Positions 28,901-40,300 of a stretch of 60,570 bases of DNA are shown piece after piece; the stretch's first letter is position 1, and each line of letters opens with the position of its first letter. Where the stretch lies: assembly GCA_021432655.1 (NCBI GenBank), contig MU271461.1:1-60570 (forward strand). The letters run 5' to 3'. The notes under the pieces were generated by a model that worked only from the letters and a program-made list of their open reading frames with translations, was not told the DNA's origin and ran no database searches. Position numbers and translations under genes: made by a program. The stretch is from Atractiella rhizophila. Lineage: Eukaryota.

Positions 28901-30839
28901 AAATCCGGCATGGTAGGATCGAAAGATATGTACTGAGGTTGCGCTTGAGGATATGAATGTGGAGATGACGATGCAAAATTGTTGTACGGCTGCGGGGAGG
29001 AAGGTGATTGATAAGGTTGTGAGAACGGAACAGGGTAAGGCGCTTGCGCAGGGGATGAGGGAGGTTGATATGGGTGCTGATTTGAAGGGGGAGGTTTATA
29101 AGGATAGATATTCGGGCTACCTGGAGCTGGACTAGTGGGAGGAAGTGTGGGGGAATATGATCCTCCGTTCTGGTAGGCGAAAGGCGCTGTAGGAGGTTCT
29201 AAGGCTGGTGCCGAGACGGGAACTTGCATTGGAGAGTAGACAGGTTGGATCGGTGCTGGAGAGCTTGCGTAGCCCCTGGCAGCATCCCAAGGAGCAGGCG
29301 ATGGAGAGGGTCCCAAACTCCCGTAGTTGACGGATTGTTGGGGGATCTGAAAGTATTGTTGCCCGCCAGGAGAAAAATCTGTAGCACCAGGAGACTGAGA
29401 GTGATACGACACACTTCCAAAGGAATTCTGGTTGTAGCCAACGGGGCCGTGGTTGTATCCTTGCTGTAAGTCGGGGGAAGTGAGATTGGGATCAAACTTG
29501 TGGCCCTCTGGAGGGACGGCAAGAGGATGCAAGACAGTAATTGGCACTTCGACCGCCAGCTTTTTGTCGAACATTCCACCTCCCAGTTCGACTCCAACGT
29601 AACATCCGATCTCGAACAGCCGGCCCCCTTTAACTGTCCACAACTCTCCCTCTAACGATCCATTCTTCTGCCTTCCTCCAATTCGAGGTAGCTCAAGAGC
29701 AAGATGAACCTCCTTCCATTCACGAGAGGGAGGAAATTCAAAGGCGCTTCCACGGAATGGATGGGTTAGGACAACTTCGGTAATCTGTGGCGGGGGAGCG
29801 TTGCTGGTGTCGGAAGGAGGGAGGAGTAGGCGTCGTGAGAAACTCATGACCAATCCAGAGGCCTGCACTCCCCGAGTCAGTCACAAGCACGTTCAACCAA
29901 AAGACTGAAGATGCACAGTTTTCTTCCCGCCATTTCTAACTTGCACCACCAAATCAACTTTGCCATGTCTCCCCACCTCTCCACCGCTCGGACTTTCTTC
30001 TCCGTTCTCCAACCTTCCTGGTTGCCTCCAAAACGCGGACCTAAGCAGCCTGACTTTGACTTCTACCTGCTCTCCCCCGCGGTCCTTTCATGTCCCTTCC
30101 CTCAACGCTCTTCCAAAACCTCTCTTTCTTCCATTCACCCTCCCTCTGTCCATGCTCCCATCCCCAGTCCTCGACCACAAAAAATTTCTAACCGTTTCGT
30201 CACCAAACTCCTTTCTCCTCCTTTATTCCCTTCCGCCCCAAGTGGTAGACCGTCGGGACCAATCTTTACCCCCGTGAGGACTTGACAAGTTGCCCGTAGC
30301 TCCCAGCGAACATTCGCGTTTGCGCCGAGAGTGAACGTCCCGGGAGGACCGTAGAAAGTTTCTTGGGACTCTTCGGGGTCTTCGGAGGGAGCGAGGAAGC
30401 CGCTAGGTATAGGAAACTGAAATTGAAAGCGTGTTCGCCCTTTCAGGCCAGGATAGTAGTGACCGCCAATAGGTGACGTGGCCTTCACGGCGTTAGAGGG
30501 GGGGAGACCGTGTCCTTGAAAGAGGACAGTCCGAGTGTGGAAGGTGCGAGTAGAGCTGTGGTCCAGAGATCTCAGCTCTGGAAGATACGTAATGCACATC
30601 AACATCTCTGTCACGCCTGACTATTCGCAGTGTAATCTGAAGAGACGCGTACCTTCGATCCCCTTGAGCTCGATACCAATTTCTCCCAACCAAATAGCGT
30701 TGCTTTTCTCGCATCGGACCTCCAAAACACCATCGATTGTCAGGCCTGTCCTAGCTAGATACACGGCTCGCGCGGGTAAAACCGAAAGTTTGAGAAATGG
30801 GTGTGAGCCCATGGCGTTCATAGGCATTGAAGGCTGCAT
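25983..30839 (-). CDS. Arrestin-like N-terminal domain protein with a long Pro/Ser-rich disordered tail
   Basis: N-terminal beta-rich segments (IWLGEIGIELKGIE, GRTRFQFQFPIP, ANVRWELRAT, LFEIGCYVGVEL, VEVPITVLHP). A 1160-aa ORF and a C-terminal RGGRGGVVTAVAGMWA. Confidence 0.65.
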
Positions 30840-31699
30840 CGTGAAAGTCGTTATTCAGTAAAAAGGCCAATAAGCCCCTATTTATGGGTGTTGGTTGTTC
30901 TAAACTCGATTGGCTGTGGTTGTCCGTCCAAAGTCACGACTCGTCAACGTGACTTTCAAGGAAAGTAAACGAGAAGGCCTGGCAGAGTTTCCAGCACTTT
31001 TAAGCTAAACAGAAATATAGCAGGGAAGGAGATGAGCGGCAGTGAATTCTTATGGGAAGGAGATGGCAAGATAACCGCAGTAAGGGATGCTGGTACGTGG
31101 TCACTCAACTTCGCTTTCTTGTAGTTTATTACGCTGTCGAGAAGTACACCATGCAAAATGCATCATGACAGGTGTTTGCAGCAATTCCTTTATTTAAAGG
31201 CTAGGATTTCGACAAAATTGTTTTCTCTTACACGACCCCGCTTTTGTGGATTGTTGTAGGATGAACACTCATGCTGGGCAAAGCCAGAGCAGCTACAACA
31301 AACTGGCTTAGCTACGATTTGCCTAATCTCTGGCCTACTCTCGAGTTGATTGTGTTGTTACGTGAGATGAGCATCTTGTGGCTTCTCGAACCCTTATGTC
31401 ATAGTCTGGCATGTCTGGCATAGGCACTGATGTGAGTATGCGTAAACTCATCATTCTCATGTCGTTATTCATCCAAACTCAAGACTAGTCGACCCATGCG
31501 ATGCGCTTAGTATGAAATGAACATGAAATGACCACGAAGTGCCAAAAGTTGGAAATAATACCACTCATGAGTTTTCATGAGCATGACAATCTTGAATTTC
31601 ACGTCAAACTTCCCATATTGTAGAAGATGCCGGGTAGCCACACGACAGTTGGCACAATTTTTTGAAGGTTCCTCTTCTTCTTTCTCAATTCATAGAGCA

Positions 31700-31737
31700 C
31701 AAAGGAGGGAAGAAACTCCAAAGGAGGGAAGAAACTC
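31700..31737 (+). repeat. 19-bp direct tandem repeat CAAAGGAGGGAAGAAACTC x2
   Basis: Read directly at 31700-31718 and 31719-31737. Confidence 0.9.
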
Positions 31738-33627
31738 GGAATCCATGCTCAAACATCTCTGATGGCAAATCCAGGCTGGAATTGCAGGTATGATGCTAAC
31801 ACAATTCGATGCAACTGTCTGCTCTCAAGACAAAGGAAAGTAGGAATTGGATAATTGCCTGAATGACACGTCTGGCATGATTAATGCCTGTTTTCAGGAT
31901 CCGTACTCTGGAGTTATAACTGATGATTGATCATGAATTTCATGCCTTTTTCATGACCGTATCATGATTCCGTTGTATGGACATGATATGAACGTGAGCT
32001 CTGGAATGTTGCGAAAACACATGTGAATTGCTCACGAGTTCGTCATGACACACTCATATCAATCCCTGGTCTGGCAGCATCAGTTACCGCACCGGCTAGG
32101 ATTGCTAGTGGTTTCAGCAAGTACTTTGCAGGCATGTGTTGGTGCAGTCCCTCGTTTCAAGGACGAGTATTCGAATACTTTAATCTTCACTCATGAAAGT
32201 TACGTCGTCATGAGTTGTCATACCAAGTCCAATCAGAATAACGAAGATGAGCTGGAAGGGCAGACCGCAGCATGATAGCGCCGCTTTCGATCAGTGCTCA
32301 CTCACGTTAATTGTGTGAAATTTCCAGTTACATCTGCCTGAATAATAATGTGAACAATGCTGAAACCATAGAAGGTTACACAGAGCGTGATAGCTCTGGA
32401 TAGCTTGCTTTTGTCACTCCACACTAGCTCAGCTGCCCGTGCGGGCCTAATGGCTAAATTCCTCGCAATCATTTGATCGCTCCTTTAAGCATTATCAGGC
32501 TTTCCAAGTCTATTGCATTTCTTCTCACGGTCTGGCATTTCTCGGTTCCGAAGCGGAGCATCTCAATTGATCAGAAGACACGCTACAACCGCGTGGCAAA
32601 CCTGCAGCCACGTTTACCAGAGAGGCTTCCAGTCTTCCAGACCTTTGCAAACTGATTTCGAGCCATTATCAAGTTGGGAATCGACGGGGCTGACGGAGCC
32701 AGAAGCAGGGCAGTCCAGATTATTGAAGAACCCAGAGTTCCATCTTGTAAAGGAGCCCAAACCCAAACAGAGCGACCAAAGAGCTTGCTTTATTCTCCTG
32801 AGCAAATCTAGAGATCCCTTTGTCCTGGCTAAAGTTGAAGATTCAGATCTCGCAACGTGGTTTCCATGTGGAGAGATAGAATTCGAGGTTGGCATAACAA
32901 AAATCTCACTATAAGAGTAGCCCTTTCTTCTCTTCCCTTTCTTCTCCCACATCCCCTTCACGTCTTGCGGTGCTGTTGGTCAGGATACAGGTTCGTCGGG
33001 ATTCCCTTTCACGTCGTCTGTGCCTTTCCAAACAAATATTTATTTACTCCTTCCCCGTCCTCCAACGCATCCTTCCGAACCCTGATATGTTGTGACGACC
33101 ATTGTTATCCATATCATGGATCTTGTCTAGCCGTGCACCAGTAGATTAGTCCATGTGAACGGCCCATAAAAGACGATGGAGATCTCTCTGTCTGCACAGA
33201 GCTCCATTTTCAAGACCACAAAGGCACTCGTTTCCCTGTGCCTTATTCGCTTTGACTGTGCTCATCTCATTTGCACCTTTTGAAAGTGTATCTTTGTGAG
33301 CTCAGCGAAGGTGTTATCATCATTTTTTCATCCATGTGAGTACATAGCTCCGGTATCCTGCCCAGGCCCAATGTTTTGCTTCGAAGCAACCCGATTGACG
33401 AGCTTCGAGCAGGACGTGACATCAGGCTGGCAGTATAAACTGACATCTCACTTGCCTTCTCTTTTGCTTTCTTCCATTACTTCTCCACTGTCCTCGATTA
33501 CTGATCTAATCTGCTTACAGAATCTTATCCCTATCCTATCTGACGGTCTTCACAGAGTTCTCCTTGTCTCAGGTTTTGTGAGCTTTCTTCTCTCCATTTG
33601 ACATGCGACTGAGTTCATCGACAGACC

Positions 33628-35678
33628 ATGCCTCCTCGACATAGTACCCGCTCGACGCCTGATCCTCACTTCAACGCAACACATTCCGACCTTTATTATA
33701 TTCAGGGTTACCAAGGAGAGCAGGCTTTATCTTCGTCAGTCGGGACTTCGACGAAGCGACATCTCCAACAAAATCACGATACGGTGGGCTCCATCGAGCT
33801 CAATGCCCATGACTTGGATCTGGAATCGCCAGCGGCTCCTCTTCTTGTTCCATCTACGTCGGCTTCAGGTTCTAACCTCTCTCTTGCTTCCACCACGCCA
33901 TCTTCTTCTTGGTGTACCTCTTCAAATGCAGAAAGTCCTTCTATTCATGGATCTCAGATCGGCACAGTCGACAATGAGGTCGAAGTCGACTACGATTATA
34001 CGGAAGAAAGAAAGGCGTCGACCGCTACCGCTCGCCCTTTGAAGAAACCGAAATCCTCCCACGCAAGAAAGGTTCCGCCTAACCACATAAAACGCCCAAA
34101 AAACGCTTTCATACTCTATCGAAGCTGGTTCTGCTCTCAAGAAGGAATGTCGAAGGCTCACGGGGTTCATGACCATCGTGATATTTCCAGGATTGTTGGT
34201 CAGATGTGGAAACAACTTCCTGCGAGCGAGAAGAGGAGGTTTGAGGAAATGGCGGAAGAAGAGAAGGCGGAACACAAGCGACTCTACCCTGACTACAAGT
34301 ACAAGCCCGTGTATAAGAAGACTTTGGCGGACCAAGGCAGAAAACGGAAGAATAAGAGAGGCGCTGAGGAAGATTACGAGATCAACAGGAGATGCATGGA
34401 AATCGCGAATATCATTTCAGAAGAGTCGGTAGGGAACGATCCGGAGAGCTCAAACAGGGTTCGAGAGCGGGTGAAGAGAGAGGTGGGAGAGTTCCCATTG
34501 CCCGGTACGCTACTTCTTCTGTCTTAAAAGTCCAGTACCAATACTTGGGTGTAGAACGATTCGACAAACCTGGCGACATGGTGCACAACTTCGCTGATCC
34601 GACGTACTTCACTCCCCAAACAGCTTCGATGTCTGGGATGGACGACATCCCGGTCTCTGCGGTCGACTACGAAAATATGGAACAGAGCGTCACCAGTGTC
34701 GAGCAGCCAACAGCACGAGCGAAGCGAAGCCGGCAGGCCAAGACTTGGAACGTCGATTCCGTTGTCGCGCAGGACTACCGCTTTCCCACAGCTCCAATGG
34801 AGCCAACGGATCCTACCGCTTACCAGTATCCAACTCCAACTCCAGATTACTCTCTCGCAAACGGGTGGTATCCAGGAACGTCCGCTGACATGACATCTCT
34901 CCTCCAAGCCACAGCCCAAAACTTCGCCGCCGTCACTTCGATCCCACCGACTGCTACCACTGAGTCTGTTGCTCAGACCCTTCAGGCGTACAGTATCGTT
35001 GGACATCCTAATTGGAACGAGCTCCAGCTCCCTATGTCTACGAGCCACCTTTCCTCCGTTATTCCACCCTGTGCCACTATTCCTCCGTACGAATCATATC
35101 TATCCGCTCCACATCAACCTCAGGCGCAATACCCTGGCTTAAAGGAGCTTCCGTTGGTTGGACCTGCGGAAGGAGACAACAACCTCATGTTGCTCGACAA
35201 CGACTGGGCCAACAGGAGAGAAAGTGTTGTGGAGTGGAATCGCGTTGTTCACATGAATCTGGCGCAAGATGGAGGGAGTGTCTTTGGTATCGTCCCGAGA
35301 CCAAGAGAGGACAGCTACGTGAGGCAAGAACGGGCAATGGATGAGGTGAGCCACTCTTTCGACTGCTTTCTGCTAAATTAACAAATGGAATGGAAATAGT
35401 TCCTCAACTATGAAAGCGTAGCTTCGCCAAGTTCCCGTCAATCCTTTGCGGTCCCTGACTTCTCACAATTCCCAACTCAGCAACTCGTCGTCAATGGTGA
35501 ATCTAAAACCTACGTTTACTTGGATATGAAACAAGCACAAAATCCCTCTCTCGTCGAGCAAATCATGGCTTCTGGCAGTGCGTAAATTTTTTCAGCGCTT
35601 TATGTTATCATTGACTTAGTTCACACAGTGGGTGTTGCTTACGAGAATGATGATCCTGAAAGAAGAAATGTAGCGTGA
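33628..35678 (+). CDS. MATA/SOX-type HMG-box transcription factor
   Basis: HIKRPKNAFILYRS...ISRIVGQMWKQL...FEEMAEEEKAEHKRLYPDYKYKP. Three introns, starting near 34505, 35346 and 35578. Confidence 0.9.
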
Positions 35679-36484
35679 TGAACGTCGCCCATACCCCAAA
35701 CAGCAAGATCAGCAGTATCTCGTTACATTTCTTGTCAATGTGTTTTTCACTCGCATTTTCTTCTTTTGGGTCGTCGTTGTGTCATTTCTCTAAAGAAGAA
35801 TTCGGTCGAAATATCCTTTCATTCAGAAATGTTCTAGAAGTTTAGTATTCGTTTGTTTAACTTGTTCAAAAAGCGCAGTATTGCAGGTGAAGTTGTCTTC
35901 GTTTTCGTTTCAGTTGATCTACGATCTACTCTTTGTTCTCATGCTCTATTCCTTCCGCTCTGGAGAGGACTTTGTTCTGTTCGAATATTCCCAATCTTTG
36001 CTGTTATCCTCCACTTCGTTCTGAGATCCGTTTTGTTTGACATGATATCATAGCGCAAACATTCAACCACTTCAGTGTCAGTTATCAAGGAACTTACTTG
36101 ATCTGTTGAGAAATATTGTAGCCATATCTCCTATATACCTTGTCCTGTTATCAAATGATTGAAAGCTTACCTCTCTTCTCGTTCATCCCTGTAGTAGTAT
36201 CAGCAAGGTTTGACGCATCCCCTTCAAATATTCAAGTGAGCTAGGGATCTGACGGACGGCTTCCTCCTGGATTGAGCGGCAACGCAAAGTAAGTCCTTCA
36301 GATCTGATGCTCTGAAGAGCTCTGACCATTCATCTTTGCTCATCTTCTCTGTGATAACCAGAATGTCAATCAAAGGTAACTGAGGGAGCAGGAGATGAAA
36401 CGAAGTATTCGATGTCAATCCCACCAACAAGTCATTCCGCATAAAATTACACTCCGTATTTCGACATTTAGACCATACAATGAT

Positions 36485-37061
36485 TCATTGATTGGAAGCA
36501 ACTGGTGGGTCATATTTCCTCAGCAACGCCAAATCAACCGGCCACCTCTCCCCCATCCACACCGCCCTTTCGGAGTGATCCTTGACTGACTCTCCTTTTC
36601 CTACCCAATTGGGATGAACGAGTACGGAAAGAGGTCCACGATTGGCGACGAGGTATCCAAACAGCGCGCCGAAGTGTTCGGGAGTGAAGATGTTCACTTC
36701 GAACATCCCAGTCGGATGAGGACCGACGGGGCGTTCAAACACCTTATACACTCGTAGCTCGGGGAATTCGCGACGGATCGAGGCATGAAGCTGTTTTGCA
36801 TGTGCCGTCTCGACTTCTGAGGAGTGTCGGAAATAAATGTGGAAGTCGAAGGCGTTGTTCGACGTCTCGATCGGGGACTGGTACGTTTTGTACCAAGCAG
36901 AGGGGGTATCGCGCTTCGGGTTCACCAGGGACTTTCCGTCTGTCCACGCAGAATAGGTTAATGGACATACACACCAAAGAGTCAAGGGACCTGCCTGCGT
37001 TCACCTCCGTCGGTAAATCGTCAACTTGCTCGTTCAGATTTGCTGGAGTTTCTGGGGCCAT
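36485..37061 (-). CDS. DOPA 4,5-dioxygenase family protein
   Basis: FDFHIYF, IRREFPELRVY, PVGPHPTGMFEV, RGPLSVLVHPN and DHSERAVWMG. Confidence 0.88.
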
Positions 37062-37397
37062 TTCTTTCCACTGATTGCAGAAAATCAATCGATCAAGTCC
37101 AACACCTTTTAAAGGCAATCCGACAGGGAATGAGGCGAAAAAAGACGCTGAATAAGTGAAGGTCCCGTGTCGACCTGTCAATCACGACACTGAACTTGGA
37201 CCACTCATCCACTCCCCGCGATTACAGTATACTTGATTACACAGCTTTCATGACCCTCCTCACCGAGTTGCTTAGGCAAAGGTGTTAAGAAAATGAACCA
37301 CGAAGGCACCTGTATTTCAACGCTTGTGGGCAATGTGGCGCAAGAAACGACGACCACAAAATTTTTTTGGCCAGCCCAAGTCAACTTGCATTTCTTC

Positions 37398-40300
37398 ATG
37401 AGAACATCTATCGCTTTCTTAATCTCGCTAGCATTTCATCTTTCCTTTCTGTACTCAATATTCGACATCTACTTCATCTCTCAGGTTGTATCCGTGAACG
37501 AAAGATATGGAGCTCTAGATCTTAAGGAAGAAGAGCCGCTCGCAAGGAGACTGGTCCTTTTTGTTGGTATGATTTGTCTCTTTTTCTTGGGCAAGGGAGG
37601 GAAGGAATGATGCAAACATGGAGGTAGTGCGGTGGCCCTGTAGCCGTCAAGGCAGGGAAAGAAGGATAGATATCCATTTGTCAGGCAAAGAGATGGGTGT
37701 CTCAACGAGACACCTAGCCGCGTGCTACTTTTCTTACAAGTCACTACCTTTTGGCCAGTGGGAATGCAAGAGACTTGCTCCTGTTCAACTTCTCTTGCTC
37801 TCCTCGACGTCAACTATAGAACTATGCTTCCCACTTGCGAAGATTTCTGTGGATACTGAGCGAGCGAGCGTATCCTCCATCCAGCCACGTTCTCTTTGTT
37901 CTAGATTAAATCCTCTCATCTTTCTACGGTATGAGTTTATGCAGCCTTAGCAGCCACTGAAGCTAGTGAAGCGAACGCTTTACGAATAACCTTTGCCGAT
38001 CCAAATTGAACACGAGAAACAAAAGCGATGATGATTCAAACTGTTCTACATCTTGAGATTTCTGCCTGACCTTCCTTTCTTCGGAGAGGGAGGACGATGA
38101 AAATCTATGAATCTGAGCTTTACCATGCATCATGTTCCAGGTTTGTAACTTCGCCTGTTGGTAGCAAAACTGCTAAGCTGTAATATATGTACAGTACCAC
38201 TGCAATGCATTTTCATTTTCCATAGCCGCTTTACACGCCAATTCAATTCTCCCTAAAGCGCAACCGGACAGTAAAGCCTATGACACGTATAGTGCCTTTT
38301 TTGTTCATTTTGTCAAAGGTTGAGGACTCTCAACTGCACAATGCTCACCATACTTCATGCACTCTTTCAACGCATCGATTAACTGAGCGTTGGTGCGCAG
38401 GTGACGGTCTACGAGCGGACAAGCTCTTCCAACTCTACCCCTCCCCTCCGTTCACCAACATTTCCCCTCTACCTTCAAGCCTACAACCTCCTCCTCACTC
38501 ATCAGATCGACCAAATGGTCAAACAACGCCAGCTCCCTATCTTCGTTCCCTCATCGAAAATGGCATCGCTCGTTGGGGAGTTAGCCATACCCGTGTGCCG
38601 ACTGAGAGTCGACCTGGGCACGTCGCTTTAATCGGAGGAATGTACGAAGACGTTTCTGCGGTCCTTAAAGGTACTTAATTCTCTTGTCGTTGAGTGGTTT
38701 GAGACAGAGGGGAAGGAAGGATGGAAGCTTAACCCAGTCGATTTCGATTCCGCTTTCAACCAATCTACAGTCACGTACGGCTTCGGCAGCCCCGACATTC
38801 TCCCTATGTTTCGAGAAGGAGCACTGCCGAAAGAAAAGGTCAAAATTTGGACGTACGACGAAGAAGCGGAAGATTTCTCTTCCGACGCAGTTCAGCTGGA
38901 CATCTGGTCTCGAGACAGGATGGTGGCCCTTTTGGAGGAGGATCGACTGCCTTTACAAGAGAAAGGCACAATCTTCTTCCTTCACCTCCTTGGTCTTGAC
39001 ACGACGGGTCATGCCTATCGACCGCACTCTATGGAATATTATCGAAACATACAAGCCGTCGATTCTATCGTTTACGACGTTCAAAAGCGTATTGAAGAGT
39101 TTTATGGCGACTCAAGGACTGCCTATGTCTTCACCAGCGATCATGGAATGTCAGATATCGGAAACCACGGTGACGGTCATCCGGACAACACTCGCACCCC
39201 TTTTGTAGTATGGGGAAGTGGGGTTTCAGACACAACGGTGGCCCAGGAAACAAAAGAAACCTGGGGATTGAACGGAAGGATTGATGTAGAGCAGGCGGAT
39301 GTAGCTGGCCTCATGAGTAGCCTGCTTGGCATTAATGTACCCGCTAACAGTCAAGGACGTATTCCACTGGACTATCTAGCCGCTGATCGTGGGAGGAAGG
39401 AAACCATTCGTTGGAGTGGTGTGCAGCAGAGACTGCAGGAATTTGTCGCAAAGACTGGTACGTAGTCTTCCTAGCTAGGAATTCAAGGTTTTGATTTGCC
39501 ATAGATAATAAACTAAAGAAGAAAGGTCGAGGATTCATTCCATTCGAACCTCTGGCGCTCGAACGTAGGAAACAAAAAGTGCAGATTATTGAGCGCCTAC
39601 TTTCTGAGGAAAATTTTGAGGATGCGATGATTGCGATGGAAGAGCTGCATGGCTTGACGCAAGAGGGCTTGAGGTACCTGCAAACGTAAGTAGCTTGTTT
39701 CGTGCCAACCGGTAAACCAATGTGCGGGATATTGCATAGGTACGACTGGCTACTCCTGAAGTCACTCGTTATCGGCGGCTACACAGGGTCGATCGTGGCT
39801 ACTGCTTTATACGTTTACATCAACTTTGCCGCTTCGGACTCTACTGCCACATTCAACACTGCTTTTGGGGTTGGAGCGGCAGCCTTTTGTGCCATGACAG
39901 CGAAATTCGTGATCGAGGAGGCTCCAGCCACATTTTACCTTTATGCCTTCTTTCCTTGCTTGTTCTGGTCATACGTCATCTCCAACTTCAACACCTTTCG
40001 GCAGCTGTTAGGACGAACATCCGTACCCATGGTGATTCTCTCACTTGCCGCACTCGAATGCATGGTACTCGGCTACTTCAACAGGTCCATTTGGAGCGCG
40101 GCATTGTTTGCGACCTGCCTTTGGGCAAGTGTAGCCCTTGAAGAAGACATGGGGAGTGCCAATACTTCAGATGCTTACAAGGCCGTCGCACTTGTGACAA
40201 CGGCATTTCCATTACTCGATGTTAACAAGGAGGAAAATCTGCTGCTGATGTGAGTTTTGTCATGTTTGCTCCTGCGAACAAAGTAATGAAGAAACCATCC

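Follow-up and report, generated by a model that had tools for sequence, protein, structure and literature searches.

A probable snoRNA-hosting intron with two 3' splice sites underlies a structured segment of MCD4 in Atractiella rhizophila

The first intron of the MCD4 gene of Atractiella rhizophila contains a segment dense in potential helices, located at positions 37618-37880 of the 60,570-nt stretch of DNA that was analysed (the window). An earlier note, made from the sequence alone, raised the question of whether this element is an atypical large snoRNA or a cis-regulatory RNA and considered it the best novelty candidate in the window. The analysis presented here favours another reading, to which we assign a probability of about 0.62: the element would be the interior 5' third of an intron that hosts a snoRNA and possesses two acceptors, rather than a discrete RNA. 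In this model, splicing from the donor at 37567 to the distal acceptor at 38400, a join seen in RNA contigs, would yield the MCD4 mRNA and presumably release an intron bearing the C/D box snoRNA at 38022-38122. Splicing to a proximal acceptor, whose use is seen in one data set, would remove an intron of default size and produce a minor transcript whose reading frame ends prematurely after 163 aa and which is probably unproductive. Helices over 37620-37632 may passively lower the use of the proximal AG, while the fold as a whole would be a by-product whose side hairpins, like the motifs reminiscent of snoRNAs, are free to drift.

The host gene and the snoRNA of its long first intron

The host gene, MCD4/PIGN, codes for GPI ethanolamine-phosphate transferase 1. 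Its coding exon 1 (37398-37566, +) is supported by a spliced join in contigs of the RNA data sets X7 and X2, by the alignment of residues 9-692 of the spliced ORF with protein P0001 (46%) and by matches to the PigN family, the best of which belong to Pucciniomycotina and show 50-58% identity. Intron 1 (37567-38400, +; GTATGA...CAG) is visible in X7 and X2 as a GT..AG skip of 834 nt and is followed by exon 2 (38401-38670, +), supported by RNA contigs and the ORF. Six further introns were placed, each of them measuring only 47-54 nt as opposed to the 834 nt of intron 1, in a gene model in which one late boundary is misplaced, with a stop at residue 701.

Four of the seven RNA runs listed were compared (X7, X2, X1 and X4), among which X7 is a spliced data set, its library not being on record; all RNA evidence consists of contigs, from which neither transcript ends nor levels can be read. 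X4 covers exon 2 alone and X1 covers 37849-38043 alone, an intronic contig that may derive from DNA. In X7, the cover of the intron halts at 38227, just past a TATATGTA motif (38141-38230 region), and picks up again at 38400; intronic polyadenylation is a possible cause, which, coming from a single contig data set, is not weighed as evidence here. A second GTATGA donor-like site is present at 37929, where the RNA contigs contain no join. The upstream region exhibits a divergent ORF (36485-37000, -), which we take from its translation to be DOPA-dioxygenase-like, and, further upstream, another ORF (33613-34527, +) whose translation presumably resembles an HMG-box protein.

The genuine small RNA of the intron is a canonical box C/D guide at 38022-38122 (+), which exhibits a terminal stem, a C box at 38028, a D' box at 38066, a C' box at about 38094 and a D box at 38113. 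A 13-nt guide and 8 nt of extra pairing match the LSU rRNA of the same genome (G000), and the D' guide predicts 2'-O-methylation of A 2663, within ACAGAAAUCUC, as numbered in the LSU copy on contig C109. This nucleotide presumably lies near A2678 in yeast numbering, and we know of no yeast modification at that site. Rfam returned weak C/D matches below the cut-off, leaving a snoRNA without an Rfam family, and its sequence is unchanged in a second genomic copy of the locus. In the LSU copy on C109 (L002), a segment of ~285 nt is duplicated and AAGUUACCACAGGGAU is followed by ~450 nt of inserted sequence, which may be a group I intron or result from faulty assembly. A metagenome pattern scan for the snoRNA led to eight loci, all eight of them long-ORF, prokaryote-like chance matches. 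Am25-Am27 are absent from the main text of the Neurospora crassa snoRNA paper (PMC2780460), and among the papers listed by a literature search none deals, judging by title and the beginning of the abstract, with an intronic snoRNA in MCD4.

A proximal acceptor within the multi-partner segment

Two loose ends in X7, each represented by one contig, define an alternative intron: in one, exon 1 continues directly into TGCGGTGGCCCT, and in the other, position 37627 is preceded by exon-1 letters. The proximal intron (37567-37627, +) has its donor in common with intron 1, ends in the acceptor TAG at 37625-37627 and, at 61 nt, is a GT..AG intron near the default intron size of MCD4; the two acceptors are 773 nt apart. 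Depth subtraction in X7 yields values of ~5 to 26 for the proximal isoform versus 123 for the main junction, numbers from which contigs cannot give a share. The C-box-like ATGATGC pointed out in the earlier note is present (37607-37613, +), though non-canonical and removed by this splicing event; at ~15-20 nt from the proximal AG, it occupies the zone expected for a branch site and may serve in branching.

The proximal AG (37626-37627) is located inside the very segment (37618-37632, +) to which three alternative partners and a switch-like character had been ascribed. All three partners exist, with predicted duplexes of -14.5, -14.3 and -10.5 kcal/mol, but segments with several partners are common: 29 of 60 random 263-nt windows contained a sampled 15-mer with at least three partners at -11 kcal/mol, the background value being the best of eight sampled 15-mers per window. 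The annotation is corrected here: the motifs reminiscent of a snoRNA constitute no gene, and what had been taken for a switch is a splice acceptor.

The remaining stems proposed for the element were likewise found where they had been placed in intron 1: CCCT-GCC/GGC-AGGG at 37636-37657, GGGTGTCTC/GAGACACCT at 37695-37715, AGTGGGAA at 37757 pairing with TTCCCACT at 37828 and enclosing GCAAGAGA/TCTCTTGC (37766-37798), and GGATAC/GTATCC at 37851-37875, together with AGATTTCTGT at 37841 and CTGA at 37856. Dense as they are, they produce a fold only slightly better than that of shuffled sequence (37618-37880: z -1.74, 11 of 200 shuffles equally good; 37600-37890: z -1.38, 15 of 200). When the ensemble of 37595-37905 is considered, AGTGGGAA/TTCCCACT and GGATAC/GTATCC pairing does not exceed 5%, whereas the hairpins at 37694-37716 (+; 10 bp) and 37766-37798 (+; GCAAGAGA/TCTCTTGC) occur at 0.95. 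The best-folding domain, a hand-trimmed five-way junction (37618-37735, +) closed by 37620-37636:37717-37732, attains z -3.26 (1 of 200 shuffles), a point against the favoured reading, but a value also reached by 3 of 513 untrimmed 118-nt windows on the same contig. Most likely, the G/A-rich 5' part and the C/U-rich 3' part fold together as such sequence does. The ranking as best novelty candidate finds no support.

A second version of the element in X7 allows the fold to be compared with the changes that occurred in it, on the basis of within-species changes alone. It differs by 12 substitutions and two indels in 233 nt (37639-37871), and the main X7 version lacks 2 nt at 37844; AGATTTCTGT is intact in neither. 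No compensatory pair was found among the changes of the second version. Six of them fall at positions paired with P>0.5 and three break a pair, two of these in the best hairpin (37694-37716); no change is listed in the hairpin at 37766-37798, nor elsewhere in 37609-37638 or 37731-37802, which counts against the favoured reading, although a gap of that size is unremarkable among 15 events (~0.1 by a rough hand estimate). At 37729 and 37871, on the partner strands of the acceptor segment, G-U pairs became G-C (37729 by inspection of the 5'-domain structure).

The genome contains a second copy of the 5' part of MCD4 on contig C784, 97.3% identical over 6,879 nt upstream. Compared with 29252-38822 of the window, this copy is near-identical, its differences being concentrated at 35500-36000 and 31250-31750, indicating that the two copies are separately assembled haplotypes. 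Because of this second copy, the second RNA version is probably the other haplotype, the element itself not being readable on C784. Divergence of the element (14/233) is similar to that of the short intron 2 (2/49; Fisher p=1) and lies far above that of the 3' part of intron 1 (1/379; p=1e-5), in a comparison that mixes RNA contigs with assembly and depends on the haplotype assignment. On that reading, the divergence of the element would be that of a short intron evolving neutrally. Over 38022-38400, only one difference separates the genomic copies, and the fold of 38260-38400 has z -2.5 (2 of 200 shuffles); constraint seems stronger on this 3' part of intron 1 (38125-38400) than on the element described in the earlier note.

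Masking of the proximal acceptor

Long introns with a C/D snoRNA and an alternative 3' splice site are known from fungi: alternative splicing has been described for the snoRNA host genes of clusters I and II in N. crassa (PMC2780460), an arrangement shared by MCD4 intron 1. In the present case, however, a protein-coding gene, MCD4, serves as host, and a truncated reading frame results from the alternative splice. A second parallel is the APE2 intron of Saccharomyces cerevisiae, in which a stem-loop occludes the proximal 3' splice site (PMC11585973; cf. PMC12637734). As in APE2, a used proximal YAG (documented in one data set by a single contig for either loose end) and a distal alternative are present in MCD4, a helix is predicted over the proximal acceptor, and the distal acceptor dominates. 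The APE2 alternative, in contrast, adds six residues and its control by temperature was demonstrated, while the sites in MCD4 are 773 nt apart and their masking is predicted.

Among the alternatives to a passive two-acceptor intron, a selected cis-acting splice switch fares best, and we consider it a tentative, rather unlikely explanation. Helices over 37620-37632 would hide the proximal acceptor and thereby favour splicing of the long intron, and their opening by temperature, elongation rate or a protein would divert transcripts to the truncated isoform, as in the case of the APE2 stem-loop. The position of a used acceptor within the multi-partner segment speaks for such a switch, as does the predicted fall of P(unpaired) for the TAG from 0.92 to 0.0 when the transcript end moves from 37660 to 37740. 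In addition, the proximal-junction record, among the records listed, carries the reference letter at 37639 and not that of the second version. However, predicted masking does not set this site apart, three of the six usual acceptors of MCD4 being likewise predicted unpaired at 0.11 or less, and multi-partner segments are common. Since both changes that touch the acceptor-covering helices convert G-U to G-C, passive or regulated, APE2-like masking of the proximal acceptor is possible, yet two compatible changes weigh little. Of the proposed cis-regulatory RNA, a weak form absent from the earlier note is retained, namely a used alternative 3' splice site in a multi-partner segment, which the helices are predicted to cover.

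Comparison with known RNA families

No match to the window was obtained at gathering score with Rfam 15. At E<=10, the region 37300-38500 yielded three matches, every one of them on the neighbouring snoRNA and none in the element. A paralogue search in G000 found one DNA match, five other exact 13-mer sites sharing at most 17 nt, so that no paralogue or homologue of the element emerged, and a viral scan of 120 loci gave no BLAST match at E<=0.01. Where no paper is named, the consensus motifs used below (boxes C and D, H/ACA boxes, Sm sites, branch sites) are those in general use.

It appears improbable that the element is an atypical long C/D snoRNA (~37602-37865), be it a chaperone of rRNA, a guide for acetylation or a decaying duplicate of its neighbour. 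C/D box snoRNAs carry a C box (RUGAUGA) near the 5' end, a D box (CUGA) near the 3' end and a guide of 10-21 nt directly upstream of D or D' in which the +5 nucleotide is base paired. The element contains a CTGA matching box D (37856-37859, +), one of five in the intron, and by inspection the core pairs of a kink-turn could arise between its motifs similar to C and D. It contains no RUGAUGA, its only candidate being the ATGATGC inside the spliced 61-nt intron, and no terminal stem flanks the motifs, G37605 facing G37860 on inspection, while the neighbouring snoRNA has one. The stretch AGATTTCTGT (37841-37850, +) is indeed a 10-nt complement to the LSU site that the neighbouring snoRNA targets and, in the assembly, a near-copy of its guide shortly before CTGA. 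However, it ends 5 nt before CTGA, leaves G37851 (+5) outside the duplex and is altered in both RNA versions. The rRNA antisense 10-mers of the element, three in number, are at background, as 39 of 230 windows contain as many. A 9-mer common to the element and the neighbouring guide is, taken singly, rarer than chance (2 of 457 windows), and so is a complement to U2 at 37650-37662, which measures 13 nt for one U2 copy (1 of 460 windows) and 11 nt for another (8 of 460), but both were picked from many comparisons and neither is kept in the second version, the 9-mer being absent from the main RNA version as well. The U2 complement is rejected, as an inserted G interrupts it in that version and 60 of 1,953 31-mers bind U2 as strongly. 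Descent from the neighbour by duplication is also rejected: its alignment to the element is not significant, 31, 132 and 35 of 359 background windows scoring equally under three schemes.

The snoRNAs snR4 and snR45 represent a further C/D layout, that of acetylation guides (PMC5464676; also PMC12848939, PMC9226516). The element resembles them in a long C-to-D span with internal helices and in some pairing near the helix-34 CCG of 18S rRNA, around which 37811-37827 can pair, its Watson-Crick score being equalled in 16 of 402 background comparisons. In contrast to snR4 and snR45, it lacks a guide upstream of its C-like motif, the sequence before 37607 being G/A-rich and the helix-34 match lying at 37811-37827, as well as a second guide between C and D. 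Its loop-out measures 3 nt instead of 9-11 nt, and bipartite pairing of the snR4 type is at background energy, being equalled by 134 of 202 windows at the helix 34 core and by 139 of 202 at helix 45. According to Canzler et al. (PMC5824354), Basidiomycota have no snR190 or U14 orthologue, which leaves room for diverged ones.

An intermediate between snoRNA and splice switch is suggested by SNORD86 in NOP56, described as a real, conserved snoRNA that controls donors in a snoRNP gene (PMC7038934). MCD4 intron 1 likewise combines C/D-like motifs beside alternative splice sites with competing folds; its boxes, however, are degenerate, an acceptor takes the place of the donors, and no link of the host to snoRNPs is evident. 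Given the overlap of the C-box-like motif with the branch zone of the 61-nt intron and the competing helices around the acceptor, binding of a snoRNP protein or refolding could select between MCD4 mRNA with snoRNA release and the truncated transcript, a scenario we regard as quite improbable.

Even less credence attaches to an alternative coding terminal exon giving a membrane-anchored 163-aa product. Proximal splicing does place exon 1 in frame with an open frame of 107 codons (37628-37950, +), but its product has no Pfam match and no homologue among four candidates (lengths of 68-219 aa only), both RNA versions carry indels, and five of the six substitutions outside the frame-shifted stretch are non-synonymous by inspection.

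H/ACA snoRNAs consist of a hairpin, an H box, a second hairpin and an ACA box, with the pocket 14-16 nt from the box. Six boxes were tested in the element, their best scores being reached by between 4 and 130 of 150 background boxes, and the two best pockets have upper stems of 2-3 bp that are hit by changes in the second version. Fungal SRP RNAs are products of Pol III genes with a UGUNR Alu motif, a long helix 5, helices 6 and 8 and a 3' U-tract. The element has a suitable size (~260-300 nt) and one UGUNR (37639), the latter lost in the second version; its fold is branched, shows no long rod and no 3' U-tract, and has no GNRA loop with a closing helix longer than 3 bp. In G000, the models RF01502 and RF00017 detected no SRP RNA at E<=1, which is expected since SRP RNAs of Basidiomycota evade Rfam, as one study reports (PMC4605306); the G000 SRP RNA is probably a non-canonical basidiomycete form. 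RNase P, RNase MRP, U2, U6 and U3 were located elsewhere in G000 (U3 below the cut-off). The two RNase P matches (L025 and L026) extend over 652 and 531 nt of sequence for a 301-position model, suggesting insertions or introns, and both U2 copies (L027 and L028) have AAUCUUUCCC at ~97-107, where a U-rich Sm site is expected. A diverged housekeeping RNA missed by Rfam, whether SRP or H/ACA, is the least credible of these explanations, given the lack of a rod fold and of any proper H/ACA pocket above background and the location in a Pol II intron.

As read here, the element has little significance, since a leaky inner acceptor is already known from long introns that host snoRNAs. Should the choice of acceptor be controlled by the helices, however, a genome with introns of ~50 nt could in this way splice an 834-nt intron bearing a snoRNA, and a route to regulate a gene of the GPI pathway would exist. 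If a SNORD86-like switch were at work, GPI-anchor synthesis would be coupled to ribosome biogenesis.
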